Below are positions 5,408 through 29,239 of a stretch of DNA of 32,074 bases, piece after piece; the stretch's first letter is position 1, and each line of letters starts with the position of its first letter. The stretch is taken from assembly GCA_964456345.1 (NCBI GenBank), contig CAYVZO010000002.1, positions 1-32,074 on the forward strand, written 5' to 3'. Below the pieces are notes generated by a model. That model had not been told where the DNA came from. It saw only the letters and a program-made list of their open reading frames with translations, and ran no database searches. This DNA comes from an uncultured archaeon. GTDB taxonomy: Archaea > Aenigmatarchaeota > Aenigmatarchaeia > GW2011-AR5. The position numbers and the translations under genes are program-made.

Positions 5408-6556
5408 ATGACAGGCGAATCAGATTACCAGGAAAGGGAAGCCAGGGCTGTCGAAGCAATCAAAAAAGAGATAAGAAGCAAACATAACATTGTCCCTTCA
5501 ACCAAAGGATTGTTTGTGGAACTCTATTATCAAGGCTCTGTCTTCCCCAAGCATTACATGTCTACTGCAATCGATGGCGTGGGCAGTAAGGTAATTCTGG
5601 CTGTTTTATTGAATAAGTACGACACAATTGGAATAGACTGTGTTGCGATGGCAAAAAATGACGAATGCGGCCATCCTGGCAACGGCAATATCCATACATA
5701 CATGTATCTTGATTATCTTGCGTGCCAGAATGAGATAGAGGAACAGTATATAACAGGGGATATAATAAGAGGGATTGAAGCAGGACTGACACTGGCTGAC
5801 ATCTCTGACGTAACAAGGCTCTGCATAAAGCCGAACCTGGGAAAAGGTGAAACAGCGAGCCTGGACGAAATTGTGGCAGGGCCAAAATCCGGGTATGGTT
5901 TTGACCTTGCCGGCGCAATGATAGGATTCGTCGAGAAAGATATAGCAAGAGATGCATTGAAAACAAGGCCCAAGGATGGCGATGCAATAGTTGCATTCAG
6001 GAGCAGTGGCGTCCACAGCAACGGCTATACTGATTTCAGGCATTACTTGTTGGACGGCGAATTTGAAGAAAGGGATAAATTCAGAAAAAGGTACAAAGGA
6101 AGGTTTTCTGTCCATGACAAAATGCCTAATTCTCAAAGAACTATCGGAGAAGAATTACTAACACCCACAAGAATATACGCGAAGTTGATGGCAGATATGG
6201 CCAAACATGACATACGTATGATAGGAATCAACAACACCGGGTACGGCCTTCATAACTTCAACAGGGTCGGACATGATGTCCAGTATGTTATTAACGAGCC
6301 ACTGGAACCGCAGGATATATTCAAACTGATGCAGGAAGAATCCGGTTTCGACGACAAGGAGATGTACAGGAAATTCAACATGGGGATGGGGTTCTTTGTT
6401 GTAACAAAACAGTTGTACGCCAACAGGATAATTAGGACTGCAGAAGACCATGGTATAGAAGCTTCTGTTGTCGGTGAAGTCAAAGAATATTCAGGGGAAC
6501 CCAGGGTGGTTTTGCGTAAGAGCGGAAAAGAGCTGCCATTCGTCGGTTATGGTTAA
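5408..6556 (+). CDS. AIR synthase (PurM)-related protein, divergent
   Basis: 382-aa ORF with DGVGSK (compare PurM DGVGTK), LDYLA, and SSGVHSNGYT (compare PurM SSGxHSNG). An atypical insertion (NDECGHPGNGNIHTYMY) replaces the canonical ND...G..P.F segment. Confidence 0.7.
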   Translation: MTGESDYQEREARAVEAIKKEIRSKHNIVPSTKGLFVELYYQGSVFPKHYMSTAIDGVGSKVILAVLLNKYDTIGIDCVAMAKNDECGHPGNGNIHTYMYLDYLACQNEIEEQYITGDIIRGIEAGLTLADISDVTRLCIKPNLGKGETASLDEIVAGPKSGYGFDLAGAMIGFVEKDIARDALKTRPKDGDAIVAFRSSGVHSNGYTDFRHYLLDGEFEERDKFRKRYKGRFSVHDKMPNSQRTIGEELLTPTRIYAKLMADMAKHDIRMIGINNTGYGLHNFNRVGHDVQYVINEPLEPQDIFKLMQEESGFDDKEMYRKFNMGMGFFVVTKQLYANRIIRTAEDHGIEASVVGEVKEYSGEPRVVLRKSGKELPFVGYG

Positions 6557-14791: not shown

Positions 14792-14860
14792 ATGGGCTAT
14801 TCTGAAAAGGCTGCTGAGAGCAATATGCCAAAAATCTTTTCAAGAAGGTGTGATTCATGA
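14792..14860 (+). CDS. 22-aa leader sORF (MGYSEKAAESNMPKIFSRRCDS), stop overlaps the next start (ATGA)
   Basis: Preceded by an SD (GGTG). Its TGA at 14858-14860 overlaps the ATG at 14857 of the 214-aa ORF. Below the ORF-track length cutoff. Translation not proven. Confidence 0.35.
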   Translation: MGYSEKAAESNMPKIFSRRCDS

Positions 14861-15501
14861 GTTTTTTGTCAAGCCTATTCGGTCCTCCGAACGTGCCTGT
14901 TAAGACTCGCTCTAAAAAACCAGGACAGCGAAAAAAGCCTAGAGTGGTCCGCAGAGTCGTACACGGTCAGGAGTATCCTTTCTACAGGACCAAAAACCTT
15001 GGAAAGGCGTTGGAGCGCTCAGGCATACATCATATCCTGACAGGAATAAGGAACAGTGAATGGGAGAGGTTTAAGGACAACGGCCACAAGATGAGATGGC
15101 ATCCTCACATCATAAACAGCTACAAAATCAATTACGATAATACGCCTGTTCTTTACGTGCCTGGCCAGCGCGGCTATAAACAGCCGAAAGTGCCTGCAGG
15201 CAGAAACAGCTTCCAGCCGTTGGGGAACCTTGTCCATTACGAGTTGAGGCTTCCCAGAGGCGAATTCAGCGTAGCCGGCTTCTTTCCACGGGAGTACCTT
15301 TATCTCGACATCGCACTGGTTCCTGGAAACGAAGAAACAAGGAAAAGGTCAGAAAGGTACGTGTCGTTCAACGTCATTGGCTACAGAGAAAACAACGTGA
15401 CAGGCAACATTGACGCTGCTTATTCTAAGCTTACGCGCGGAATCGAGAAGTCGACGTTAAATAAATACGTAAAAGAGGCGCTCAACTCCATAAGCGCCTA
15501 G
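14857..15501 (+). CDS. Orphan basic protein, 214 aa, N-terminal LFG motif
   Basis: SD GGTG lies 7 nt upstream. N-terminus is MSFLSSLFGPPNVPVKTRSKKPGQRKKPRVVRR. I recognise no family. Confidence 0.6.
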   Translation: MSFLSSLFGPPNVPVKTRSKKPGQRKKPRVVRRVVHGQEYPFYRTKNLGKALERSGIHHILTGIRNSEWERFKDNGHKMRWHPHIINSYKINYDNTPVLYVPGQRGYKQPKVPAGRNSFQPLGNLVHYELRLPRGEFSVAGFFPREYLYLDIALVPGNEETRKRSERYVSFNVIGYRENNVTGNIDAAYSKLTRGIEKSTLNKYVKEALNSISA

Positions 15502-15544
15502 AAAAGGGGTTTAAATACGCCTAAATTAACTACTCTATAGTAAC

Positions 15545-15604
15545 GAAATCTTTAAATATAGTCGGCAGTGCATTACTACCTAGTTGTAGTGAATATAGGT
15601 GTGG
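15545..15604 (+). promoter_or_regulatory. Promoter/5'UTR module B: GAAATCTTTAAATAT ... GTAGTGAATATAGGTGTGG
   Basis: Duplicate of module A with a spacer 10 nt longer. GGTG lies 8 nt upstream of the ATG at 15610. Confidence 0.6.
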
Positions 15605-15609
15605 GTTGT

Positions 15610-15741
15610 ATGAAAAAGAAATATCCAAAAAATGGAATCGGTAAGAGAATCCATTATTGCGGCAGCGGATTCAAAGGCGAGGTTATAAAGGCTCGCGGCA
15701 TAACTTTCTGCACGTTTTGCGGCCACGAGTTCAGGGAGTGA
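15610..15741 (+). CDS. 43-aa zinc-ribbon-like sORF (MKKKYPKNGIGKRIHYCGSGFKGEVIKARGITFCTFCGHEFRE)
   Basis: SD-led. HxC ... CxxC spacing is compatible with a small Zn knuckle pair. The stop directly abuts the next ORF. Below the ORF-track cutoff. Confidence 0.45.
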   Translation: MKKKYPKNGIGKRIHYCGSGFKGEVIKARGITFCTFCGHEFRE

Positions 15742-15747
15742 TTGAAA

Positions 15748-16287
15748 ATGCTCTGTGTAAGAGAAGGTCCGATTTACGAGAGAATGAAAGACCTCAATCT
15801 GTCAGACCTGATAATAGAACTCTTTGGCAATATTGATTCTAGAGGAAGCTCGGCAAAGCCGAACTTCCGCACTTCAACAGACTACAGAGGAGGCTCAACA
15901 GGACATGGTATAGAGTATACAATGCCTTATGACTTTGATATAGGAAGCTACGACCCTCGGACTGGAGAGATACAGGTAAGCAAGTATTTTCCTAATGGCA
16001 GGCCTATTTCTGAAAGGGCTCAGAGATACATATTCGCGCATGAAGACGGCCATAGACGGGGTTATGATGAGATTGACACAGCGCTGTTTGCAGAAAGTGC
16101 AGCTGACCCTGATTTATGGCTCATGGTAATGGGTTACAGGGCAGCTTTTGCCAAGCAAGGCAGGAACTGCAGGGACGCTGAAGTATACAGGGGCATTACA
16201 GAAAGGTACGGAAGAAGCGAAATAGCCCCTCTGCTCAGGGCGATAGACAAGATTGGCGATGAAATAATAGCAGAGGGTAAGAGGTGA
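15748..16287 (+). CDS. Orphan protein with HExxH motif (FAHEDGH), putative small metallopeptidase; N-terminal LFG motif
   Basis: 179 aa from the ATG at 15748 (the ORF track uses the TTG at 15742). Contains ELFGNIDSRG near the N-terminus and RAQRYIFAHEDGHRRGYDEID. GGAG lies upstream. Confidence 0.6.
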   Translation: MLCVREGPIYERMKDLNLSDLIIELFGNIDSRGSSAKPNFRTSTDYRGGSTGHGIEYTMPYDFDIGSYDPRTGEIQVSKYFPNGRPISERAQRYIFAHEDGHRRGYDEIDTALFAESAADPDLWLMVMGYRAAFAKQGRNCRDAEVYRGITERYGRSEIAPLLRAIDKIGDEIIAEGKR

Positions 16288-16292
16288 TTTGG

Positions 16293-17492
16293 ATGGTAGG
16301 CAACACAAAGGAATTGATTTATAATCTTTTCGGGGATAGTCAAAGAATACCTACAAGCGGATTGTTCGGCGGACCGCTTGGTTGCTTTGCCAACGAGATG
16401 GTAGCAACCGGCTCTGGTGCCTACCCAATATCAGAGGGCAGGCCGATGCCGACTTTCGTATACAGGAAGGGCGAGAAAGGCAGCAAGCCTGACACACCTG
16501 GTGCAAAGCCGGGCGATTATTCCGGAGGAAAAGAACCCGGAATGCCGTACATATCAGCAAGGCCTGTTTCAGGTCCTGCAAAAGAGCCGAATACAAAGAA
16601 ATCTAACGGTAATGCTAAGAAAGGGGTGAAAAAAGTGCCAGTAGATTTGGGAAAACCATTCAAAGAAATTGGGAAGAAAATCGGAGACTTTGGAAAACCG
16701 AAGAAAAAGGCTATGCCAGGTCAACCAGAACGGAAATATACCATGCAGAAAGTTAAAGAAGAAATAGACCTGTTAAGAGAGCAGACAGGGAAACTGTCAA
16801 CATCAGAGAAAGAGATTCTATATAGTGGTACCCATTTAAATGAGGAAATAAGGAATAAAACCTATTCATTGGGAAGAGAGATAAAATATCTAAGCGGGGT
16901 TCTCAACGACGACAAAGAAAGGTTTGGCAGAACAGCTAAAGTAGGAAACAAAAAATTTGAATTAACCAAAAAAAATACAAGGAATTCAGCATCTGGTAAA
17001 TATGTTGCTGAAGCGCAAGACGGGGCTGCTGAATTCATACCAACAGCTGAAGAGGAGTATAGAAGCATCCTAAGCAATATGACGACAACAAAAGAAACAA
17101 CCAGTAGAATATTGCAAGAACTTACAGACATGTGGGATGCGGTGACGTTCCAAATGGAACGCTATGCAAAAGCTCAGACAGATATCAGAGATGCTTGGGG
17201 AACCTACGATGAACAGCTAACAAGTCTCTCAGGAATGAAGACACTGGAAGAGATGGGAAAAGAAAGTCCACTCTACAAGAAATTGGAAGAAATTGGAAAA
17301 GACGTATCAGAAGGGAAAGAGCTAGAGAAAGCATATAAAGACCTGTACGAATCTATGGAAACAACTGAAGCATTTCTTGGAGAATATGCATTCAAAGCAC
17401 GCGGATTAATAGACAGAATAGAAAGAATGGAACCAGCTGTTGACAGAAAGTTGAATGACATAAATAGCTATAACATAGAGCAGGCTTCCTAA
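16293..17492 (+). CDS. Orphan protein: LFG N-terminus, Lys/Pro/Gly-rich disordered linker, long coiled-coil C-terminal half
   Basis: About 399 aa from the ATG at 16293, which has GAGGTGA 3 nt upstream. The GTG at 16284 overlaps the previous stop and is an alternative start. ELIYNLFGDSQRIPTSGLFGGPLG is followed by KPGDYSGGKEPG...KKGVKKVP...GKPKKK and then heptad-like E/K/L-rich sequence. Confidence 0.65.
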   Translation: MVGNTKELIYNLFGDSQRIPTSGLFGGPLGCFANEMVATGSGAYPISEGRPMPTFVYRKGEKGSKPDTPGAKPGDYSGGKEPGMPYISARPVSGPAKEPNTKKSNGNAKKGVKKVPVDLGKPFKEIGKKIGDFGKPKKKAMPGQPERKYTMQKVKEEIDLLREQTGKLSTSEKEILYSGTHLNEEIRNKTYSLGREIKYLSGVLNDDKERFGRTAKVGNKKFELTKKNTRNSASGKYVAEAQDGAAEFIPTAEEEYRSILSNMTTTKETTSRILQELTDMWDAVTFQMERYAKAQTDIRDAWGTYDEQLTSLSGMKTLEEMGKESPLYKKLEEIGKDVSEGKELEKAYKDLYESMETTEAFLGEYAFKARGLIDRIERMEPAVDRKLNDINSYNIEQAS

Positions 17493-17494
17493 AA

Positions 17495-17510
17495 TTGTTT
17501 TTTCTTTTTT
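17495..17510 (+). terminator. T-rich terminator (TTGTTTTTTCTTTTTT) after the orphan operon
   Basis: Begins 3 nt after the TAA at 17490-17492. Oligo-T runs of 6 each. Confidence 0.5.
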
Positions 17511-17543
17511 CCTCTTTAATTCTAAGCCTTTTTCGAACAAATG

Positions 17544-17632
17544 GACGCACAGAGGTGCGTCAGTTCGTTAACGGCTTAAGCGAAAATGTAGCTTACACTA
17601 TTAATGGTATAGACTATCCGCGAAGCGGATAG
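17544..17632 (+). other. Cluster of four perfect palindromes/hairpins (candidate sRNA or operator array)
   Basis: GACGCAC-AGAG-GTGCGTC (17544-17561), CGTTAACG (17566-17573), GCTTAAGC (17574-17581), and CTATCCGC-GAA-GCGGATAG (17614-17632) followed by TCTTTTT. Confidence 0.4.
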
Positions 17633-17667
17633 GGTATCTTTTTATTTATCCGATATGTATTATATTC

Positions 17668-18315
17668 ATGGCTTTGGAAGACATAGGTATATTGTTGTTC
17701 GTGGATATCCTGAAGATGACTGAATATCCGGGCTCGCCTTTCACAGGCAATATCATAAATGACCTGGTAATGTTCCTTCTCGTGCCTACCATATTCATCA
17801 TAGTGGTCATCTACACGCTTGTGGGGAGATTGACTCCAAACGGCAAGATAAAATTATTGCTCAGTGTGGGAATATTCCTGTTCATAGTGTTCGGAGGGTA
17901 TTACCCGATGTTTGCCTACCTCGCAGGTCCGTACTTCCTGTTCCTGATAATATTCCTAGGCCTTATAATGTTCTTCTTCGGCCACTTCGGCCTTCGGAGA
18001 GGCGAAACTCAGCACATGCCAGGAAGGGCATTGATGGCTGCCACAGACAACTCGGCAAAAGCCTCTGGAGAAGCACTGCACCATCTGCCAAGCAGGCTTC
18101 AGGGCCTTGTTGTTGCGCCCAGCCTGAACATGAGAGACAGGGCAGAGCTGGAAAGGGCTGCCCGTGGGCTAGACCGAGAAATAGAAGACTTACAGAAAGC
18201 TTATGATAGAATGGTGGAAACCGGTGCTCACGGTACTGGAGACGTTGCATTAAGGCTTCAGGAAAAACGAAATCAGAGAAGAATGATAGAAGCAGCTCTT
18301 ACAGGTACTAAATAG
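17668..18315 (+). CDS. Membrane protein P1 (3-4 N-terminal TM helices plus cytoplasmic coiled-coil tail), distant paralogue of P2-P4
   Basis: 215 aa. FLLVPTIFIIVVIYTLV resembles the FLLPWLxTFAVxYGLL core of P3/P4. TTTTTATTTAT lies about 20-30 nt upstream of the ATG, suggesting a leaderless or short-leader mRNA. Confidence 0.65.
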   Translation: MALEDIGILLFVDILKMTEYPGSPFTGNIINDLVMFLLVPTIFIIVVIYTLVGRLTPNGKIKLLLSVGIFLFIVFGGYYPMFAYLAGPYFLFLIIFLGLIMFFFGHFGLRRGETQHMPGRALMAATDNSAKASGEALHHLPSRLQGLVVAPSLNMRDRAELERAARGLDREIEDLQKAYDRMVETGAHGTGDVALRLQEKRNQRRMIEAALTGTK

Positions 18316-18323
18316 TGGTTACA

Positions 18324-18782
18324 ATGCTCGAATTATCTTCTGAAATGGTTGCTTTGTTAACCTCATTTCTGTTCGTCTTTGCTATAATATATGCGCTGCT
18401 TATATACACGAACATATTCACGCAATCGAGGCGCTCGGCAGTGATTATATCCCTGGTTATAGCGTTCTTCTCTGTTGTCTACGGCCCCATGGTAAGCTTA
18501 CTGCAGAACATACTGCCTATAGCAAGCCTGTTGCTCGTATTCCTCTTTTTCATAGTGTTCATCAAGAAGCTTATAGAAGGAGGCGGGATAAAAGACTCAG
18601 CGCCCATAACAGTTTCGCTGGCAATACTTCTGGTTGTTCTCGCTTCTACGTGGGGTAGTCTTGGGCTCTATCTCCCTTATCCGCTAACGCCTGATACGGT
18701 TTTATGGATAATAGGGATATTCGTTATATTGCTGATATTTCTCGGCGTATACTACCATAATCCGAAGGGGGAACAAAAATAA
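18324..18782 (+). CDS. Membrane protein P2 (multi-pass), paralogue family
   Basis: 152 aa from the ATG at 18324 (the track uses the GTG at 18315, which overlaps the P1 stop). LLTSFLFVFAIIYALLIYTNIF...VIISLVIAFF aligns with P3/P4. Confidence 0.65.
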   Translation: MLELSSEMVALLTSFLFVFAIIYALLIYTNIFTQSRRSAVIISLVIAFFSVVYGPMVSLLQNILPIASLLLVFLFFIVFIKKLIEGGGIKDSAPITVSLAILLVVLASTWGSLGLYLPYPLTPDTVLWIIGIFVILLIFLGVYYHNPKGEQK

Positions 18783-18827
18783 TTAACTATAAAAGCATGG
18801 GATGATAAATATTGAAAGAGGATATGT

Positions 18828-19343
18828 ATGGCTGACATCGTAACAACGCTGATGACGCAGTTAAGCTCCATAGGGTTCTTTGAGTTCTTGCTGCCCTGGC
18901 TTTTCACGTTCGCAGTTGTATACGGCCTGCTGATGAAGGTCGGGGTCTTTGGAGATGTCAGCAAAAAGGTCTCTCCAGTAATCGCAATAGTAATAGCATT
19001 CTTCATAACACCTTATGCAGGCCCCTGGCTTGCAAGCTATTTCTCGACGCTGTCTACGGAAATAGCAATCGTGCTTGCAGGCATACTGACTTTGGTGCTT
19101 TTCGCAGGTATGATAGGCTTCAAAGCGGATGAGCTCAAGAGCAAGAAATGGGGCCTTCCCATAGTGGTCGTGATGGCTGCAATCGTGTTCTTCTTTGCCC
19201 TTGGCGGCGAGTTTACTGCAGTAACAATCGGTGAGAACACGATAATGACCGTGGTGTTCATCGCGTTCCTGATAATAGCTGTATGGTTCATAACAAGCAA
19301 CGGAAAGAAGGAAGAGAAGACACAAACAGGTGGAGCTTCATAA
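18828..19343 (+). CDS. Membrane protein P3 (about 5 TM), paralogue family
   Basis: 171 aa. MADIVTTLMTQLSSIGFFEFLLPWLFTFAVVYGLLMK. SD GAGGA lies upstream. Confidence 0.7.
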   Translation: MADIVTTLMTQLSSIGFFEFLLPWLFTFAVVYGLLMKVGVFGDVSKKVSPVIAIVIAFFITPYAGPWLASYFSTLSTEIAIVLAGILTLVLFAGMIGFKADELKSKKWGLPIVVVMAAIVFFFALGGEFTAVTIGENTIMTVVFIAFLIIAVWFITSNGKKEEKTQTGGAS

Positions 19344-19359
19344 TGAACGGGTAATTCTG

Positions 19360-19833
19360 ATGGCAAGTCCTTTTGACAGCCTGGTTCTGATGCTGAAAGA
19401 TATTGGATTTTTCGGATATTTCCTGCCCTGGCTCCTGACGTTTGCTGTCATCTACGGACTGCTTGTAAAGTCCAAAGTTCTGGGAGAGGACCAGAAGATA
19501 ATCGGGGTTGTTTCCCTTGCGATTTCCTTCTTCGTGATAGGATTCGGCAGCATCGTCCTGGGCGAGTTCTTCGCATCATTGTTCGGGATGGGAATTGTCG
19601 TGTTGTCAGTCATCCTGGTAATGGTTCTTTTCGTGGCAATGGCAGGCGGCGACGTGAGCAAGCTTGCAGAGAACAAGCAGGTAATAGCCCTGCTCGTAGG
19701 CGTTGGCATAGTAGTCATAATAGCCCTTATGAGCAGTTTCGGCTTGGTTGTCAGCGAGGAATGGCTCACCCTTCTTGCAGTGCTGGTGATGCTTGGAATA
19801 GCTTTTGCATTTATAACGAGCAATAACAAATAG
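19360..19833 (+). CDS. Membrane protein P4 (about 5 TM), close paralogue of P3
   Basis: 157 aa from the ATG at 19360. MASPFDSLVLMLKDIGFFGYFLPWLLTFAVIYGLLVK aligns residue-for-residue with the P3 N-terminus. The track's GTG start at 19330 is unlikely. Confidence 0.7.
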   Translation: MASPFDSLVLMLKDIGFFGYFLPWLLTFAVIYGLLVKSKVLGEDQKIIGVVSLAISFFVIGFGSIVLGEFFASLFGMGIVVLSVILVMVLFVAMAGGDVSKLAENKQVIALLVGVGIVVIIALMSSFGLVVSEEWLTLLAVLVMLGIAFAFITSNNK

Positions 19834-21035: not shown

Positions 21036-23261
21036 ATGGTCTGCGAATATGAGTATGACGAAGAGAAGCAGTGCATAAGGATAAACTGCCTGGGCTGCAT
21101 ATACGGATGTTCTATAGAAGACAGCGATGTATGCATGGCAACCACGATTGACAAGCTGATAGAGTTAAAGCGCCTGGTCCGTGTAGTTTTGGCAGAGAAC
21201 AGGGAGCATGAATACGACTTCGGGGACATAAAGCTTCTTCTGGAAATAGCAAACTCGATTGAAAGGATATCAAGGGAGGGAATAGTCGCGCTGAGGAATA
21301 TAGTGATATCCGAGTGCGAGGAAGAAGCGCCGGAACGCTACGCATTCCTGAGGAAACTGCTTAACGATCTCAGGTACGATCCTATAGAGGCTTACAAGAA
21401 CCTGTTGCGGGAGATACGCCACTCACGGACGCGGAGCGAAAAAGAGGACGAGATACACAGGAAGTGCAATGCTCATTATATAGAAAACACGCTTCTTCCG
21501 ATAAAGAGTATGCTCGACAGATGCAGGTTGATACAGCTTTCTAAAGAGCGGCTGACAGAGCACAAGGACCGCTCTCTTTACAGGAAGATATTCCACCCCA
21601 GCATAAGGCCAAACTTCATGTATACCAGGTATGTTTCGCTTCCGCCGTCGAACGCAGAGCTCATAGAGAAATATGAGTTAGGAGGCACGGATGTGGAGAT
21701 ATACCAGGTGCCCAACAACGTGAGAAAGCTGTACTACCTGATACCGCCGGAATTCAAGCTCAAGGAAAATGAATACACTCTTTTAGATACTGCACGCCAG
21801 TATCTGGGCCGGCACGAGCCGGGAGAAACGGAACTGGAGCATCCTGAGCGTGTAAGGGAGAACATATTCCGTATAGGCCTGGACATGCTGAGGGATATCG
21901 CAAGGGAGCAGAAGATAGACGTAACGGAAGAAAAGCTGGAGCACCTTGCAAACATCCTGGTAAGGTATACGATAGGTCTCGGGGTACTCGAATTGTTCCT
22001 GGAAGACGAGAACATACAGGACGTGGAGATAAACTCTCCTGTTGGCCAGCTTCCTGTATATGTTTTCCATAATAACCACCTTGAATGTGAAACGAATATC
22101 GTGCCAAGCAGGGAAGACGCGGAGTCATGGGCAACACGATTCCGTTTATCAAGCGGCCGCCCTTTAGATGAAGCGAATCCTGTGATGGATACAGAGCTTA
22201 TCGTGCCTGGCGGTCGCGCAAGGGTAGCAGCGATCACTAGGTCACTCTCGCCAGACGGCCTCGGCTTTGCGTTCCGTCGCCACAGGTTCAGGCCCTGGAC
22301 ATTCCCCCTGTTCATAAAAAACAGGATGATGGATTCTCTTTCTGCGGCAGTGTTATGGTTCACCATAGACGGTGCAAGAACGATGCTTATAGGAGGAACA
22401 AGAAGCTCAGGCAAGACAGCCTTCCTAGGTTCCTGCATGGTGCAGATAATGCCCAAGCTGCGAGTAATAACTGTCGAAGATACGCTGGAGCTGCCTGTCG
22501 AGCAATTGCGGGAAATTGGTTATAATATAGAGCGCCTGAAGTCGCGTTCCGTAATAACCCGCGTGGAGACGGAGCTTCCTGCTGATGAGGCGCTGCGCAC
22601 CGCGCTGCGTCTGGGCGATTCCTGCCTGATAATAGGCGAGGTACGCAGCAGGGAAGCGCTGGCTTTGTATGAGGCAATGCGCATTGGCGCGCTCGCCAAC
22701 GTAGTTGCAGGCACTATTCACGGCGAATCTGCATACGGAATCTTCGACCGTGTCGTTAACGACCTTACAGTACCTACAACAAGCTTCAAAGCCACGGACC
22801 TGATAGTCATATGCAATATGTTAAGGTCTCCGGACGGGCTGAACTCTTTCCGCCGCGTCGTCGAGATGACTGAGGTCCGTAAGCACTGGAAAAGCGACCC
22901 AATGGATGAGAATGGCTTCGTGAATCTGTTTGAATATTCAGCCCGCGAGGATTCGCTCAAGCCAAGCAAAACTCTTCTGATGGGTGAATCAGAAATCTTA
23001 AACAACATAGCAGAGCGCGTCCGCGAATGGAAAGGCCGCTGGGACGCTGTGTGGGGGAACATAGAACTCAGGGCGAACGTGTTCGACACGCTTGTAAAAT
23101 ATGCAACTTCAAAGAACAAGCCAGAGCTTCTGGAAGCTCCTTTCGTAATGGAGTCGAATTCTAAATTCCACTTAATAAGCAGTGCGGTTAAGGAAGAGCT
23201 GGGCGCTCTAGACAGCAAGGTAATATACGGCAAGTGGCACGAGTGGCTCAGAAACTTCTAG
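21036..23261 (+). CDS. Type IV filament/secretion ATPase (PilB/FlaI/VirB11 superfamily) with extended Cys-rich N-terminus
   Basis: 741 aa. Walker A GGTRSSGKTA, Asp box ITVEDTLEL, Walker B CLIIGEVRSREA, His box GTIHGES, and an upstream LELFLEDENIQDVEINSP motif typical of FlaI/GspE N-domain ends. The N-terminus is MVCEYEYDEEKQCIRINCLGCIYGCSIEDSDVC. Confidence 0.9.
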   Translation: MVCEYEYDEEKQCIRINCLGCIYGCSIEDSDVCMATTIDKLIELKRLVRVVLAENREHEYDFGDIKLLLEIANSIERISREGIVALRNIVISECEEEAPERYAFLRKLLNDLRYDPIEAYKNLLREIRHSRTRSEKEDEIHRKCNAHYIENTLLPIKSMLDRCRLIQLSKERLTEHKDRSLYRKIFHPSIRPNFMYTRYVSLPPSNAELIEKYELGGTDVEIYQVPNNVRKLYYLIPPEFKLKENEYTLLDTARQYLGRHEPGETELEHPERVRENIFRIGLDMLRDIAREQKIDVTEEKLEHLANILVRYTIGLGVLELFLEDENIQDVEINSPVGQLPVYVFHNNHLECETNIVPSREDAESWATRFRLSSGRPLDEANPVMDTELIVPGGRARVAAITRSLSPDGLGFAFRRHRFRPWTFPLFIKNRMMDSLSAAVLWFTIDGARTMLIGGTRSSGKTAFLGSCMVQIMPKLRVITVEDTLELPVEQLREIGYNIERLKSRSVITRVETELPADEALRTALRLGDSCLIIGEVRSREALALYEAMRIGALANVVAGTIHGESAYGIFDRVVNDLTVPTTSFKATDLIVICNMLRSPDGLNSFRRVVEMTEVRKHWKSDPMDENGFVNLFEYSAREDSLKPSKTLLMGESEILNNIAERVREWKGRWDAVWGNIELRANVFDTLVKYATSKNKPELLEAPFVMESNSKFHLISSAVKEELGALDSKVIYGKWHEWLRNF

Positions 23262-23310
23262 CCAACCACGGATTTTTATAGCAACTGTTACAAATATAAT
23301 TCAGGTAGTT

Positions 23311-25356
23311 ATGCCTCTGGAAAGAAGGAAGAAAGCGCTGGAGATACCGAGCTCCCGCGAGAGGTTGGTCAGGGAGAATCTCAGGGAGCTCAAGAAGCTT
23401 GAATCGCGCGAGTACAAAATATACAAGGAAGAAGAAAAGCTGGCAACGCTGCCGCGTACTCTCTACGAGAAGGCGTGCAGGATCTCGTACAGAATAATAA
23501 AAGTCACGCCTGACAAGAAGACAGGCAAGATGCTGAAGGACGCGATAGAATTCTCACATCTCAGGGTTACGCCTAGCCAGGTTGCTTCTTTCACCATAGT
23601 ATTCGCGATGCTTGTCTGCTTCCCGACACTTATACTGACGGCAACAAGGATTTTCCTTGCCTCGCCTGACCCTGTTACAGGAGATATAGTGCCCGGCTTC
23701 GGCCTGGATGCCGGCTACAGCATGCTCATATTCGTTCTTGCGATCCCGTTCACTTACTACATATACGTCTATCCTGTGCACACGAAGAAGAAGTACGAGA
23801 TGGACGCAGGCTCGGAAATCGTAACCATGATAATGTACATGGCAATGTACATGAGGAATACACCCAACCTAGAGGGCGCACTTAGGTTCGCTTCAGAGAA
23901 CATTTCAGGCCCGCTTGGTTTCGAGCTCAGGAAACTCCTCTGGGATGTCGAAATCGGTAACTATCTTACGGTAAACGAGGCCCTTCTTGCTTACACGAAG
24001 AAATGGTCGCGAAACAGGGAATTCATCGAGGCGGTTGAGATAATAATAACCTCGCTCAATCAGAGCGGTGAAAGAAGGGTTACGATGCTTAACGAAGCAA
24101 TAAACATCATACTCAGGGGCAACATGGAGAATGCGAAGCACTTCAACCAGAGCCTCAGAACGCCTGTTACTGTCGTGCACGCCATGGGCATAGTGCTCCC
24201 TGTACTCGGCCTTGTGCTGTTTCCCATAGTAGCGTTCTTCCTCAACGTAGACATAATGGCGCTCTTCATAGGATATGACATATTGCTTCCTGTGTTCCTT
24301 TTCTTCATAATAAAGAACATACTGGAGAAAAGGCCCGCCACCTTTTCCAAGATAGACATATCTGACAATCCCAACATACCCAAGGAAGGAAGATTCAGAT
24401 TCAGGAAGAGGGACATAAAAGCATGGCCGATTGGAATCCTCTCAAGCATTGCAGTGTTTTCAATCGCTTTTCTGATATACATGGCAGAGGGCCAGAACGG
24501 GGTACTCTCGCCTGTGCTCTTTGTATTCTCCGTTGCGATAGGGCTTTCAACCTACTTCATTCTGGTCTCTTCACCTTTCCTAAAGGTAAGGTCAACTACA
24601 AGGGACATTGAGAGCGAGTTTGCAGAAGCGCTGTTCCAGATGGGAGAGCAGATATCCAGCGGTGTGCCCATAGAACTCTCCATGGAACATTCAGTAAGGA
24701 GAATAGGAAACCTCAAGATAAAGGAATTCTTCCAGAAAGCGCTGAATAATATAAGCCAGCTCGGATTGACATTCGAGCAGGCGTTCTTTGACAAGAAATA
24801 CGGGGCAGTGAACCTCTATCCATCAAGGCTTATAAAGTCTGTTATGCGTGCTGTCTCGGAGTCCTCGCGCAGGGGAGTGAAAACAGCCTCTATGGCCATG
24901 CTTACCATATCCAGATACCTGAAAGGGATTCACCGCACGCAGGAAGATGTCAAGGACGAGCTCAGCGAAACGCTGAGCTCGCTGAGGTTCCAGGCGTTCT
25001 TTCTCTCACCGATGATATCAGGCGTCGTCGTCACGCTTGGTATAGTAATACTCACCATACTTGAAGGCCTGGGCGCATCAACTGCAGGGTTCTCTTTCAT
25101 GGAGCTGCCGCTTCTGCTGAATGAAATAAATGTCACCTCTTTCCAGTTCGTCTTCGTGGTTGCTGTATATCTGTTCGAGACCTGCTTGATACTCTCTTTG
25201 TTTATAAACGGCATAGACAACGGAGAGGACCCGATAGAACTTAAAAGTTTGGCTGGATATTCACTGGTAATAGGATTTGTAGTCTTTATGACAACGCTGT
25301 TCATAACGTTCATGATATTCATGCCTTTGCTGACGCCGTTGTTGGGACTCGTATAA
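23311..25356 (+). CDS. Polytopic platform protein of the PilC/FlaJ/TadC (T2SS-F) type
   Basis: 681 aa, directly downstream of the ATPase. Alternating soluble helical segments and TM clusters (at least 8 helices by eye), the usual archaeal FlaJ/PilC architecture. Assignment rests on architecture and synteny rather than on a strict motif. Confidence 0.7.
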   Translation: MPLERRKKALEIPSSRERLVRENLRELKKLESREYKIYKEEEKLATLPRTLYEKACRISYRIIKVTPDKKTGKMLKDAIEFSHLRVTPSQVASFTIVFAMLVCFPTLILTATRIFLASPDPVTGDIVPGFGLDAGYSMLIFVLAIPFTYYIYVYPVHTKKKYEMDAGSEIVTMIMYMAMYMRNTPNLEGALRFASENISGPLGFELRKLLWDVEIGNYLTVNEALLAYTKKWSRNREFIEAVEIIITSLNQSGERRVTMLNEAINIILRGNMENAKHFNQSLRTPVTVVHAMGIVLPVLGLVLFPIVAFFLNVDIMALFIGYDILLPVFLFFIIKNILEKRPATFSKIDISDNPNIPKEGRFRFRKRDIKAWPIGILSSIAVFSIAFLIYMAEGQNGVLSPVLFVFSVAIGLSTYFILVSSPFLKVRSTTRDIESEFAEALFQMGEQISSGVPIELSMEHSVRRIGNLKIKEFFQKALNNISQLGLTFEQAFFDKKYGAVNLYPSRLIKSVMRAVSESSRRGVKTASMAMLTISRYLKGIHRTQEDVKDELSETLSSLRFQAFFLSPMISGVVVTLGIVILTILEGLGASTAGFSFMELPLLLNEINVTSFQFVFVVAVYLFETCLILSLFINGIDNGEDPIELKSLAGYSLVIGFVVFMTTLFITFMIFMPLLTPLLGLV

Positions 25357-26566: not shown

Positions 26567-27249
26567 CCCCAGTACTCAGGCAACGATTTGCGGTTTAGGA
26601 AATAAGTGAGCGTTGCCTTAAGGTTCAATTTCAGGAATTTAAGCATGCCTCTCCGCATCCGCCTCGATGAAACGAATATTCCTATGTCGTCCATGAAAAA
26701 AAAGCGGCCGTACAAAGAGATTCTTCTTGCCATATCGTGGTCCTCGTTGGTAAGGAGGTTTGAGTCGAAACCGCCAGCCTTTCTGAAAGTCGCAGCATCG
26801 AAGGCAAAGCAACAGCCGTTGGTAATTATGAACCCTGCCCTTGTGGCGTATTTCACGAGAAGGTTCCAGAACCACACGAGACTGGTATCGGTTTTTTGCT
26901 TGAAAATGCAGCCGACTATTGGCTCTTTGAAATTACCCTTTAATCTCTTAAGAAAATCCCCTGGAACGACGACATCGGAATCAATGAACACCAATATATT
27001 TCCGCGGGCTTTTTTTGCACCCGTGTTCCTCGCCACTCCGGGCCCTCTCCTCTTTTCGAACAAGACCTTCGCGTATTTTCTTGCTATCCTTACTGTGTTG
27101 TCTTGGCTGTGGCTGTCAACCACGATTATTTCGTAACGGCCTTTCTGCTTCCTTATAGATTCAAGGCAATCCCCTATGTATTGTTCCTCGTTCTTCGTGG
27201 GAATTATGAAAGTGAAGTCTACTTCCGGCATAGGATTCCCATTTCCCAT
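26563..27249 (-). CDS. Glycosyltransferase family 2 (GT-A), soluble short form
   Basis: 228 aa. FTFIIPTKNEEQYIGDCLESI, IIVVDSHSQDNT, and a DxD-like FIDSDV. Confidence 0.85.
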   Translation of the reverse strand: MGNGNPMPEVDFTFIIPTKNEEQYIGDCLESIRKQKGRYEIIVVDSHSQDNTVRIARKYAKVLFEKRRGPGVARNTGAKKARGNILVFIDSDVVVPGDFLKRLKGNFKEPIVGCIFKQKTDTSLVWFWNLLVKYATRAGFIITNGCCFAFDAATFRKAGGFDSNLLTNEDHDMARRISLYGRFFFMDDIGIFVSSRRMRRGMLKFLKLNLKATLTYFLNRKSLPEYWG

Positions 27250-27830
27250 ATGTTCTCGCTGCTTGCAACAGGTTTCATGCCTAAAGATACTACCATATCA
27301 AATACCGTCTCTCTCTTCAGCGGTTTTTCATAGCCGACAAATTCCTCGAACTTGTCGCCTAAAAACGCCCGGAACGTCTTGTACCGCACAGTGGGATGGG
27401 GGAAAAACAAAATAAGGTGGCCGCCCTTCTTCACAGCATCTACGTGGACTTTTATCAGGTTCACCTGGTCTTTACCCTTGAAATGCTCTATAAGCCCGTC
27501 GCTGAACACCAGGTCGAACTTGTTCCTGTATTTGAGTGACAGGGCACTTCCTATTCTGTAGTCGATGCTGGGATGGTTGTTCGTATCAAGAAATACCTGT
27601 CTTGCCTCAAGTGAGTTGTCCACAAGCACCGCCGATCCGCCGTATATATCGAGTATTCGTTTTGTCAATAAGCCGGAGCCTGCGCCTATCTCCAGTATCC
27701 TTGGGTTTTTTATACGCCCTATATTGCTCTGCCTCAGCAGTTTCTTGTAGCTTCTGAACGAAACAGACCAGAACAGGTCCATCAAAAATTTGTTCTTGCC
27801 GTAAACGCTCCAGTACTTGTCCCACGCCAT
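27219..27830 (-). CDS. Class I SAM-dependent methyltransferase
   Basis: ILEIGAGSGLL (motif I) and VLVDNS (motif II). I place the start at Met60 of the 262-aa track ORF (MAWDKYW..., CAT at 27828-27830), because upstream sequence is occupied by a tRNA gene. Met46 and Met55 are also possible starts. Confidence 0.75.
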   Translation of the reverse strand: MAWDKYWSVYGKNKFLMDLFWSVSFRSYKKLLRQSNIGRIKNPRILEIGAGSGLLTKRILDIYGGSAVLVDNSLEARQVFLDTNNHPSIDYRIGSALSLKYRNKFDLVFSDGLIEHFKGKDQVNLIKVHVDAVKKGGHLILFFPHPTVRYKTFRAFLGDKFEEFVGYEKPLKRETVFDMVVSLGMKPVASSENIWEMGILCRK

Positions 27831-27871
27831 CAAACCACTACCCATACTATATACGCAACACAATAAAAGCA

Positions 27872-28021
27872 TGCCCCTGCCGAGAGATTCGTGTCCTTTC
27901 TTCCGTGGGCATTTCGAACTCGGATTATCAGGTCCGCAACCTGACGTCCTTTCCGGCATCCTTTTAGCTTTTTTTGTAATCGCTTTTTCCAAAAGGGCTG
28001 AATCCATTAGACTACAGGGGC
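27872..28021 (-). tRNA. tRNA-Arg (anticodon GCG) interrupted by two non-canonical introns (D-loop about 51 nt; T-loop 27 nt)
   Basis: Minus-strand read: GCCCCTG-TA-GTCT-AATGGAT[...intron...]A-GGAC-G-TCAGG-TTGCGGA-CCTGA-TAAT-CCGAG-TTCGAA[27 nt]T-CTCGG-CAGGGGC-A. The 7-bp acceptor stem pairs perfectly across 140 nt. D stem is GTCT/GGAC. Conserved positions present: G18G19, U33, G37, G53-C61, T-loop TTCGAAT. TATA-like CTTTTTAAAT spans -26 to -35, and CTTTTATT follows the discriminator. Exact splice junctions are not resolved. Confidence 0.8.
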
Positions 28022-28046
28022 TTTTTTATATCTAGCAGTTATAGAG

Positions 28047-28056
28047 ATTTAAAAAG
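28047..28056 (-). promoter_or_regulatory. TATA-like box (CTTTTTAAAT on the minus strand) for the tRNA gene
   Basis: 25 nt separate it from tRNA position +1 (28021). It resembles the AATCTTTAAAT core of modules A and B. Confidence 0.4.
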
Positions 28057-28086
28057 ATTATCGTACCAATAAATAAGGAGATTGCC

Positions 28087-28248
28087 ATGGCTTTAAAATG
28101 TGTATCTTGTCATATAAATCTTGCTTCAGAAGATAATTTTAGCAAGTTCAAGTGCCCTGCATGCGGAGAAGGGGACATCGTAAGATGCGAGGAATGCAGG
28201 AGGAAGTCCACACCCTATGAATGCGGGTGCGGTTTTGAAGGGCCTTAG
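28087..28248 (+). CDS. Zn-ribbon protein (COG2888-type, conserved partner of aEF-1beta)
   Basis: 53 aa, MALKCVSCHINL...FKCPACGEGDIVRCEECRRKSTPYECGCGFEGP, with four CxxC-type knuckles. SD AAGGAG lies 6 nt upstream. Located immediately before aEF-1beta, as in many archaea. Below the ORF-track cutoff. Confidence 0.8.
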   Translation: MALKCVSCHINLASEDNFSKFKCPACGEGDIVRCEECRRKSTPYECGCGFEGP

Positions 28249-28256
28249 GCGATTCT

Positions 28257-28526
28257 ATGGGTATGGTTGCTGTCACGTTTAAAGTCATGCCTGGTTCTGC
28301 TGATGCGGACCTTGATGCCATTAAGAAACAGGTCAAGGAAAACCTGTCACGGATAAAGAATATCAAGCTGGAACAGGTAGAGGAGAAGCCTGTTGCGTTC
28401 GGCCTAAAGTGCCTGGAAGTCCTTGTTACTATGCCTGATACCGGTGGCACGGACAAAATAGAGGAAGAGATAGCCAACGTGCCTGGCATCGAGTCTGTAA
28501 ATACCGAAGACGTGACATTAATATGA
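28257..28526 (+). CDS. ef1b: Translation elongation factor aEF-1 beta
   Basis: 89 aa. MGMVAVTFKVMP...VEEKPVAFGLKCLEVLVTMPD..GGTD.IEE.I..V.GIESV is characteristic in both length and sequence. Confidence 0.9.
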   Translation: MGMVAVTFKVMPGSADADLDAIKKQVKENLSRIKNIKLEQVEEKPVAFGLKCLEVLVTMPDTGGTDKIEEEIANVPGIESVNTEDVTLI

Positions 28527-29239
28527 AAAAGGCTCTGATGGCGATCTACTCATCAGCTCCTGTCTGGATATCCCTTCTCGTCGGTTTCCTATTCCACTTC
28601 AGTTTGTTTGACACCCTAATCCTTGCAATCATGTCTGAGGCAGCCATAATATTCATGATTTTCCTGTCAGGCAGGCTCAACTTCGAGCTCTTCAGAAAAA
28701 TCACGCATATTGTAGGGATATTGTTCATCATATACATGGTATATGCGAATGCCGACAGGAACCTTTTGTTGTTGGTCATAGGAATAGCTGCTGCTCTCTC
28801 GTTGCCTGTATACATTTGCCCGATACGGTTCCCTGACACAATAAAAAACCTGGCTGTAAAATCCGTGAGAAGCGGCGAACGTTCTATACGCTGCGTTACT
28901 CATTTCCTTGTTGCTGCATTCATCATGCTCCTGTTCCTCCCCTACAGCTTCGTAATACTCGGTTTTCTGATAGCGTTGATAGGAGACCCTGTTGCGTTCA
29001 TAGTAGGAACCAGGTATGGAAAAAGGAAGATAGTTGGTGAGAAGACTCTAGAAGGCTCCCTTGCATTCTTTATCTGTGTCCTGTTTGCGATGTTACTTTT
29101 GGGTATCAACTTTGCAACAGCGGTTGTATTAGCATTCACAGGAGCAGTAGTCGAGCACGTAACCGTGAAGTATCTGGATGACAATGCAACAGTGCCAATC
29201 GTAACATCCTTTGTATATTATTTGGTTTTTCTGGTGTAG
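28523..29239 (+). CDS. Polyprenol/dolichol kinase - cytidylyltransferase family membrane protein (COG0170-like)
   Basis: 238 aa, about 7 TM. GDPVAFIVGTRYGKRKIVGEKTLEGSLAFFI matches the CTP-transferase-1 / Sec59-type signature. Its ATG overlaps the aEF-1beta stop (ATGA). Confidence 0.7.
   Translation: MKKALMAIYSSAPVWISLLVGFLFHFSLFDTLILAIMSEAAIIFMIFLSGRLNFELFRKITHIVGILFIIYMVYANADRNLLLLVIGIAAALSLPVYICPIRFPDTIKNLAVKSVRSGERSIRCVTHFLVAAFIMLLFLPYSFVILGFLIALIGDPVAFIVGTRYGKRKIVGEKTLEGSLAFFICVLFAMLLLGINFATAVVLAFTGAVVEHVTVKYLDDNATVPIVTSFVYYLVFLV

Follow-up and report, generated by a model that had tools for sequence, protein, structure and literature searches.

The window analysed here, 32,074 nt of archaeal DNA (positions 1 to 32,074 of contig CAYVZO010000002.1), carries on its minus strand, at 28021..27872, what is very probably a functional archaeal tRNA-Arg(GCG) gene, the transcript of which would contain two introns of the bulge-helix-bulge (BHB) type, removed by protein-dependent splicing. 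Exons of 20, 38 and 14 nt make up the gene, interrupted by a 51-nt insert in the D-loop and a 27-nt insert in the T-loop. The gene structure, the exact junctions, the conservation and covariation among relatives and the geometry of the splicing motifs were all observed directly.

The gene and its relatives

The acceptor halves GCCCCTG and CAGGGGC pair over 7 bp and enclose 150 nt, which on the minus strand read GCCCCUGUAGUCUAAUGGAU, the 51-nt insert, AGGACGUCAGGUUGCGGACCUGAUAAUCCGAGUUCGAA, the 27-nt insert and UCUCGGCAGGGGCA. The parts of the gene are:

28002..28021, minus strand: exon 1, 20 nt; acceptor 5' strand, U8 and A9, D-stem 5' strand and the D-loop as far as the U before A21
27951..28001, minus strand: intron 1, 51 nt, in the D-loop between mature nucleotide 20 and A21 (20/21)
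27913..27950, minus strand: exon 2, 38 nt; A21 and the D-stem 3' strand, the anticodon arm, the variable loop UAAU, and the 5' strand of the T stem with T-loop U54-A59
27937-27935, minus strand: anticodon GCG, in exon 2
27886..27912, minus strand: intron 2, 27 nt, in the T-loop between A59 and U60 (59/60)
27872..27885, minus strand: exon 3, 14 nt; U60, the 3' strands of the T stem and the acceptor, and discriminator A73

When both inserts were excised, the joined 72-mer was called a tRNA-Arg(gcg) by ARAGORN. The call required both excisions; removal of either insert alone gave no call. The first-pass annotation of this DNA had proposed exactly this arrangement, a two-insert tRNA-Arg(GCG) of 150 nt from which 51 and 27 nt are removed to leave a 72-nt cloverleaf, and the proposal was correct to the base. 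The cloverleaf was also the minimum-energy fold of the spliced 72-mer (−33.2 kcal/mol; z = −4.2 versus shuffles), with stems of 7, 4, 5 and 5 bp, a 7-nt anticodon loop, U33 and the anticodon GCG at positions 34-36. The universal tRNA bases were all in place (U8, A14, G18G19, A21, U33, U54U55C56, A58 and the G53:C61 pair), and the R15:Y48 pair was A15:U48. The anticodon loop of the window gene has no insert, as the first-pass annotation had stated. The CCA end is not encoded at the 3' end of the gene.

In a loose scan of both strands of the window for a 7-bp acceptor stem and a 5-bp T stem with a TTCRA loop, no candidate had an intact T-loop, and about 10, including 28021..27872, appeared if a T-loop insert was permitted. 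The acceptor and T-stem criterion alone is therefore a weak discriminator of a tRNA gene. Among these candidates, only 28021..27872 had a full cloverleaf, relatives with compensatory changes and a match to uninterrupted tRNA-Arg(GCG) genes. The fold at this site is far beyond chance expectation.

Relatives of the gene were located through homologues of the methyltransferase encoded downstream of it, P0002 (79% identity) and P0003 (70%). The contigs of both homologues keep the order EF-1 beta, small zinc protein, gap, methyltransferase and glycosyltransferases, and the gap contains the same tRNA gene. The inserts in the three syntenic alleles are:

Window: D-loop insert of 51 nt; T-loop insert of 27 nt
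L001 / L002: D-loop insert of 48 nt; T-loop insert of 78 nt; same sites as in the window
L004 / L005: D-loop insert of 37 nt; T-loop uninterrupted (CCGGGUUCGAAUCCCGG)

The spliced exons were 92-97% identical (66/72 between window and L001, 68/72 between window and L004, and 70/72 between L001 and L004). All differences were accounted for by three double compensatory changes, with no broken pair: U:A to A:U at 27:43, C:G to U:A at 28:42 and A:U to G:C at 51:61. The inserts, unlike the exons, diverged in length and in most of their sequence. Within intron 1, a core AAAAGCGWU was invariant in the three alleles, and the pairing around it differed locally; the core may reflect shared ancestry or some constraint.

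Further tRNA-Arg(GCG) genes emerged when the exon 1 20-mer was searched against a collection with one genome per species. Five of these, L007, L027, L030, L040 and L042, were uninterrupted archaeal genes, all called by ARAGORN. A sixth, L032 (uncultured archaeon CAYJRA010000002.1; minus strand of the locus, ∼6142-6225), has an ordinary 12-nt intron at 37/38 and an uninterrupted D arm, GUCUAAUGGAUAGGAC, the closest such arm to that of the window. A gene for tRNA-Arg(GCG) in a Woesearchaeota metagenome-assembled genome (MAG; JAWABG010000033.1), L041 (2868-2969, minus strand), has 30 nt inserted at the same point of the D-loop as in the window. The exon 1 20-mer is identical in the window, L001, L004, L032, L041 and the uninterrupted genes, these loci having been chosen by that 20-mer. 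The spliced window tRNA matched the spliced or uninterrupted archaeal tRNA-Arg(GCG) sequences at 61-70 of 72 positions. In an alignment of 10 sequences, 97.1% of the cells were paired and seven pairs changed on both sides. None of 500 shuffles equalled the alignment in percentage paired or in covariation score, and slid controls were 40-52% paired.

The same relatives fix the splice junctions. Excision of the two inserts produced the sequences found in intron-free orthologs, namely AAUGGAUA in the D-loop of L032 and UUCGAAU in the T-loop of L004; at the D-loop junction itself, L032 reads GGAUAGGAC with no insert. Because the D arm of L032 and the T arm of L004 are uninterrupted, the exact junctions are independently confirmed.

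The locus is not fixed across the wider group. Contigs L045-L050, which were fetched through EF-1 beta homologues for more syntenic copies, lack the tRNA gene. In L049 and L050, EF-1 beta is 64-65% identical to that of the window; about 10 bp from it stands a 205-aa methyltransferase (L050) or an uncharacterised 129-aa open reading frame (ORF; L049), with no zinc-protein call and no tRNA in between. Separately, 15 nt past the uninterrupted tRNA-Arg(GCG) of L027, a Methanosarcinales-labelled MAG, ARAGORN called a 91-nt tRNA-Pro(cgg) (4133-4223, plus strand); at this length, an intron or a long insertion is suspected. The tRNA-Arg of L027 is nearly identical to that of the Nanoarchaeia MAG L042, so the Methanosarcinales bin label may deserve a check.

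Signals for transcription flank the gene. The first-pass annotation had described a TATA-like box at about −30 and a T-tract after the discriminator, and both were found:

28047..28055, minus strand: TATA-like box TTTTTAAAT at −34 to −26 relative to the mature 5' end; a putative archaeal promoter for the tRNA gene
27865..27868, minus strand: T4 tract (27868-27865), 4 nt past the discriminator; putative archaeal transcription stop

The block AATCTTTTTAAAT(C/G)TCTA around the box was invariant in the window, L001 and L004, and the spacer downstream of it was variable. The tRNA genes of L001 and L004 are also trailed by a T-rich stretch. TTTTTAAAT probably acts as the promoter element and the T4 tract as the terminator. 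A second A/T-rich block, A(A/G)ATATAAAAAA, abuts the tRNA 5' end upstream (28022-28032) and is kept in the three lineages. Its plus-strand reading, TTTTTTATAT, could be a TATA box for the divergent zinc-protein and EF-1 beta genes, which would place two back-to-back promoters within 65 bp.

Splicing motifs and proposed processing

The tRNA splicing endonuclease EndA cuts after the second base of a bulge. In published motif definitions, the strict motif is a 3-4-3 hBHBh', and the relaxed forms are HBh' and hBH (PMC3239211). The T arm with intron 2 formed a strict 3-4-3 BHB as its minimum-energy fold. This motif comprised the 5-bp T stem, a central 4-bp helix between U54U55C56G57 and CGAA, and an inner helix UG.CC/GG.CA; the bulges were A58 A59↓A on the 5' side and UC↓U60 on the 3' side (arrows mark the junctions). 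In the 78-nt intron 2 of L001, the central helix was U55C56G57:CGA (3/4 pairs, with a U54-C mismatch), the bulge was AA↓A, and an 8-bp inner helix was stacked directly on the central helix. The BHB fold of L001 had an energy of −31.9 kcal/mol, 0.6 from the minimum of −32.5 kcal/mol.

For the D arm with intron 1, the 5' site lay in a clean 3-nt bulge, AU↓U, in an HBh'-like arrangement. This bulge was flanked by the helix UGG:CCG and by an inner helix of CA/UG followed by CCUUUUGG/CUAAAAGG. The four intron bases before the last two paired with A15-G19 at 3/4 positions in the window and in L004, at 3/4 in L001 with the mismatch in another register, and at 4/4 in L041. The D-loop insert of L041 formed a perfect 4-bp helix, AUGG:CCAU, with 3-nt bulges AU↓A and AA↓A. 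Overall, the geometry of the D-loop intron is recurrent but not strict, and a relaxed form of the motif is plausible. The first-pass annotation had asked for strict or relaxed BHB motifs at the junctions: the T-loop intron showed the strict form, and for the D-loop intron only a relaxed form is plausible.

Two further features of the inserts were considered. A GAAAGGAC-like string had been said to be common to both introns, which might have marked intron 2 as a duplicate of the intron 1/exon 2 junction. This echo was at chance level, with 318 of 2000 dinucleotide shuffles scoring as high, and we discarded it. Nor were the UGAUGA or CUGA boxes of a C/D-box guide RNA seen on inspection of the introns by eye.

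By analogy with established tRNA processing in archaea, the following pathway is likely. Transcription of a precursor of ∼150 nt would start a few bases upstream of 28021, directed by the −34/−26 TATA box, and stop at the T tract. The ends would be trimmed by RNase P and a 3' nuclease. In the folded precursor, T-loop bases U54-G57 would pair with the last bases of intron 2, and D-loop bases A15-G19 with the 3' end of intron 1 at three of four positions. EndA would then make two cuts per intron, an RtcB-type ligase would join the three exons into the 72-nt tRNA, and CCA would be added after ligation. Because intron 1 has a relaxed motif and both introns occupy non-canonical sites, the host would need an EndA of broad specificity.

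As to the identity of this host, the window encodes archaeal GatD/GatE, aEF-1 beta, an HVO_2753-type zinc protein and a methanopterin-type radical S-adenosylmethionine (SAM) methylase. The best matches of GatE (52-62% identity) that carry a phylum name are all from Candidatus Aenigmarchaeota/Aenigmatarchaeota, and the rest are labelled 'archaeon', including GW2011_AR5. This single marker makes an Aenigmatarchaeota-like DPANN archaeon the most likely host. The first-pass annotation had taken the introns as a taxonomic clue to Thermoproteales or to ARMAN-type archaea. The clue was sound only at the level of DPANN, and a Thermoproteales or ARMAN (Micrarchaeota) host was rejected, since the GatE matches point to Aenigmatarchaeota.

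Alternative readings and neighbouring genes

Several observations weigh against the interpretation of the element as a functional, spliced tRNA gene. At the 3' end of intron 1, the site AA↓A21 has no proper 3' bulge and falls within a 2x4 internal loop in which A14 is unpaired; the central helix of this intron has three good pairs only, in a register that differs in L001. Folded as a whole, the 150-nt precursor reaches its energy minimum (−44.2 kcal/mol) in a structure other than the cloverleaf; the cloverleaf with BHB motifs has −40.0 kcal/mol, 4.2 above that minimum. Selection of loci by exon 1 for the wider alignment explains in part why the acceptor and D-arm 5' strands do not vary, and the independent syntenic alleles number only three. 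The taxonomic placement relies on one marker protein at 52-62% identity. Neither EndA nor RtcB was found among the ORFs of the 32-kb window. Finally, transcription, the splicing itself and the enzymes involved are what we infer.

One alternative is that the locus is a decaying pseudogene, in which two insertions have disrupted an ordinary tRNA-Arg(GCG) gene so that it makes no tRNA any more. A pseudogene would account for the relaxed motif of intron 1 and for the failure of standard tools to see the gene, splicing is a deduction, and other copies of the tRNA could exist outside the window. However, lineages that share only 55-81% identity in the neighbouring proteins have retained the interrupted gene at this position. 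Its exons remain 92-97% identical with all three stem differences compensatory, its promoter block is invariant, and the complementarity of the T- and D-loops to the intron 3' ends is retained despite introns of differing length and sequence. Such conserved features would not persist in a pseudogene, and we therefore consider this alternative quite unlikely.

The behaviour of the standard tools deserves separate comment. ARAGORN reported no tRNA in the whole window, and none in the unspliced 150-nt precursor when run with its intron option. Rfam likewise returned no tRNA, either at the gathering score across the window or at E <= 10 in the 2 kb of 27000-29000. Both programs were silent on the unspliced form, which two short introns at unusual places hide from gene finders. 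As configured, they are blind to tRNA introns and missed the relatives too, including L032 with its 12-nt intron at 37/38, which Rfam passed over at its gathering score, so their silence on the window gene says little. The L041 gene was also missed by ARAGORN and Rfam and is unannotated as far as those tools show. A metagenome scan with an exon 2 pattern gave no matches, and a second, aimed solely at copies with an interrupted D-loop, brought up three tRNAs, all of them uninterrupted and variant in the D arm.

A slimmer possibility is that the tRNA is real but the D-loop insert leaves by a route other than EndA, involving another factor or an RNA guide, or that its junction is misplaced by 1-2 bases. 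Consistent with this, intron 1 has no 3-nt bulge at its 3' site, L001 pairs in a different helix register, and a shift of the junction by one base in L004 or L041 leaves the product unchanged. Against it, the product sequence is fixed by the uninterrupted D arm of L032, and in the window and L001 a single pair of cuts yields that product. Moreover, the relaxed HBh' and hBH forms are established substrates of broad-specificity EndA (PMC3239211), and purified EndA alone removes a D-loop intron from an Aeropyrum pernix tRNA (PMC3241643). A group I or group II self-splicing intron is ruled out by the size of the inserts (27 and 51 nt, compared with a ribozyme core of hundreds of bases) and by the lack of any Rfam match at E <= 10.

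The gene is overlapped by an ORF, annotated as follows:

27219..27830, minus strand: SAM-dependent methyltransferase, true coding region, 203 aa, beginning MAWDKYW
27219-28007, minus strand: listed 262-aa ORF, over-extended across the tRNA gene; its first 59 codons (27831-28007) are spurious

The closest homologues, P0002 and P0003, are 203 aa long and start at the methionine that is residue 60 (M60) of the window ORF. All 14 other homologues align only beyond the first 59 residues (50-77% query coverage), and the Pfam methyltransferase domains begin past residue 90 of the 262-aa ORF. In L001 and L004, the codon immediately preceding the true ATG is TGA, and several further stops interrupt the frame across the tRNA. 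At the codon before the ATG at 27830 the window reads TTG, not TGA, which is why its ORF runs on across the tRNA gene. A 257-aa call of the window methyltransferase, P0001, is present in the public protein collection; the masking of the tRNA by an ORF call, which the first-pass annotation had suspected, is therefore real. It might be argued from the uninterrupted frame (28007 to 27219) and the 257-aa public call that the sequence from 28007 onward encodes the N-terminal 59 residues of a 262-aa methyltransferase and that the tRNA-like fold is incidental, but the extent of the homologues and domains, the in-frame stops and insert length differences that are not multiples of three (51 versus 37 nt; 27 versus 78 versus 0 nt) make this the least credible of the alternatives.

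Two other groups of genes in the window were recorded. A 238-aa membrane protein with no Pfam match (28523-29239, plus strand) is syntenic in L001 and L004 (234-235 aa, 55-76% identity). Its motif GDPVAFIVGTRYGKRKI is reminiscent of the CTP-dependent dolichol or phytol kinase / cytidylyltransferase family. Seven ORFs of 155-402 aa without a Pfam match (14857-19833, plus strand) lie upstream of genes for a T2SSE-like ATPase and a T2SSF-like membrane protein (21036-25356); together these may form an archaeal type IV pilus-like cluster with unrecognised pilins.

Intron turnover and comparison with known systems

The three syntenic alleles differ in their T-loop introns, which measure 27 nt in the window and 78 nt in L001 and are absent from L004, though L001 and L004 are the closest pair. 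Across five proteins, L001 and L004 were 63-90% identical to each other and 55-79% identical to the window. L001-L004 identity exceeded L004-window identity in all five proteins and L001-window identity in four; the exception was the GT2 glycosyltransferase (62.9% for L001-L004 versus 65.6% for L001-window). The T-loop introns of the window and L001 were weakly similar (16/1000 shuffles). Since the nearest relatives differ in this way, the T-loop intron was either lost precisely in L004 or gained twice at 59/60. This gain or loss among close relatives is a modestly novel point and provides a small test case for the process.

For the genome concerned, the gene supplies a tRNA for the CGU and CGC arginine codons that would otherwise be scored as missing, and the methyltransferase gene is shortened by 59 N-terminal residues that were false. 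From the relaxed D-loop motif, a splicing endonuclease of broad specificity is predicted for this lineage. The locus is thus a concrete and well-supported example of a disrupted tRNA gene from an Aenigmatarchaeota-like lineage: an annotation rescue and a modestly interesting case of a known phenomenon in a little-studied phylum. Our literature search found no paper on tRNA introns in Aenigmarchaeota. In DPANN archaea, EndAs with an extra loop accompany many disrupted tRNA genes; the broad-specificity candidates are alpha4 with an L3 loop, epsilon2 and (alpha-beta)2, and disrupted tRNA genes that escaped detection are suggested by the incomplete tRNA sets of genomes from DPANN and Asgard (PMC5829648). 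We tentatively suggest, with more doubt than confidence, that the locus captures, as a natural snapshot, the turnover of tRNA introns in Aenigmatarchaeota. If so, DPANN tRNA genes might have preferred insertion sites that are repeatedly hit or cleared, and the missing DPANN tRNAs might largely be such genes, processed by a not yet characterised broad-specificity EndA.

Among known systems, ARMAN-2 resembles the window in several respects. Its pre-tRNA-Cys and pre-tRNA-Pro carry 59/60 introns, and that of tRNA-Cys is cut by ARMAN-2 EndA, an enzyme of the epsilon2 type, in vitro (PMC3239211). The two share a DPANN host, a short BHB-type intron at 59/60 with a strict hBHBh' motif (in the tRNA-Pro of ARMAN-2), more than one non-canonical intron per gene and a history of being overlooked by standard tRNA finders. 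By contrast, the second intron of the window gene is in the D-loop and not the T-loop, the tRNA is Arg(GCG), and the host is Aenigmatarchaeota-like.

For the D-loop intron, the closest biochemical parallel is the pre-tRNA-Thr2(UGU) of A. pernix. Its intron, also within the D-loop, is removed by recombinant APE-EndA, and the mature tRNA was detected in cells (Hirata et al. 2011, PMC3241643). Excision was achieved by the purified enzyme alone, more slowly than for a 37/38 intron. A. pernix is, however, a crenarchaeon with an (alpha-beta)2 EndA bearing a Crenarchaea-specific loop, and its intron has a canonical BHB, whereas the D-loop intron of the window is relaxed.

The L041 gene of Woesearchaeota has the same 20-nt exon 1 and the same D-loop site, and its A15-G19 pair with the 3' end of the intron as they do in the window. 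It differs from the window gene in having no T-loop intron, a D-stem 3' strand of GAAU and an intron sequence with no evident similarity.

Multi-intron tRNA genes are common in Thermoproteales, with up to three introns (PMC4033280). [quoted passage not shown] The phylum differs, the GatE of the window matching Aenigmatarchaeota, and transposition of introns between tRNA genes has been described for Thermoproteales; no sign of it was seen here, where no search was aimed at it. Overall, other archaea already provide documented and biochemically validated cases of tRNAs with multiple introns at these positions, and the window gene does not overturn the current understanding of them.

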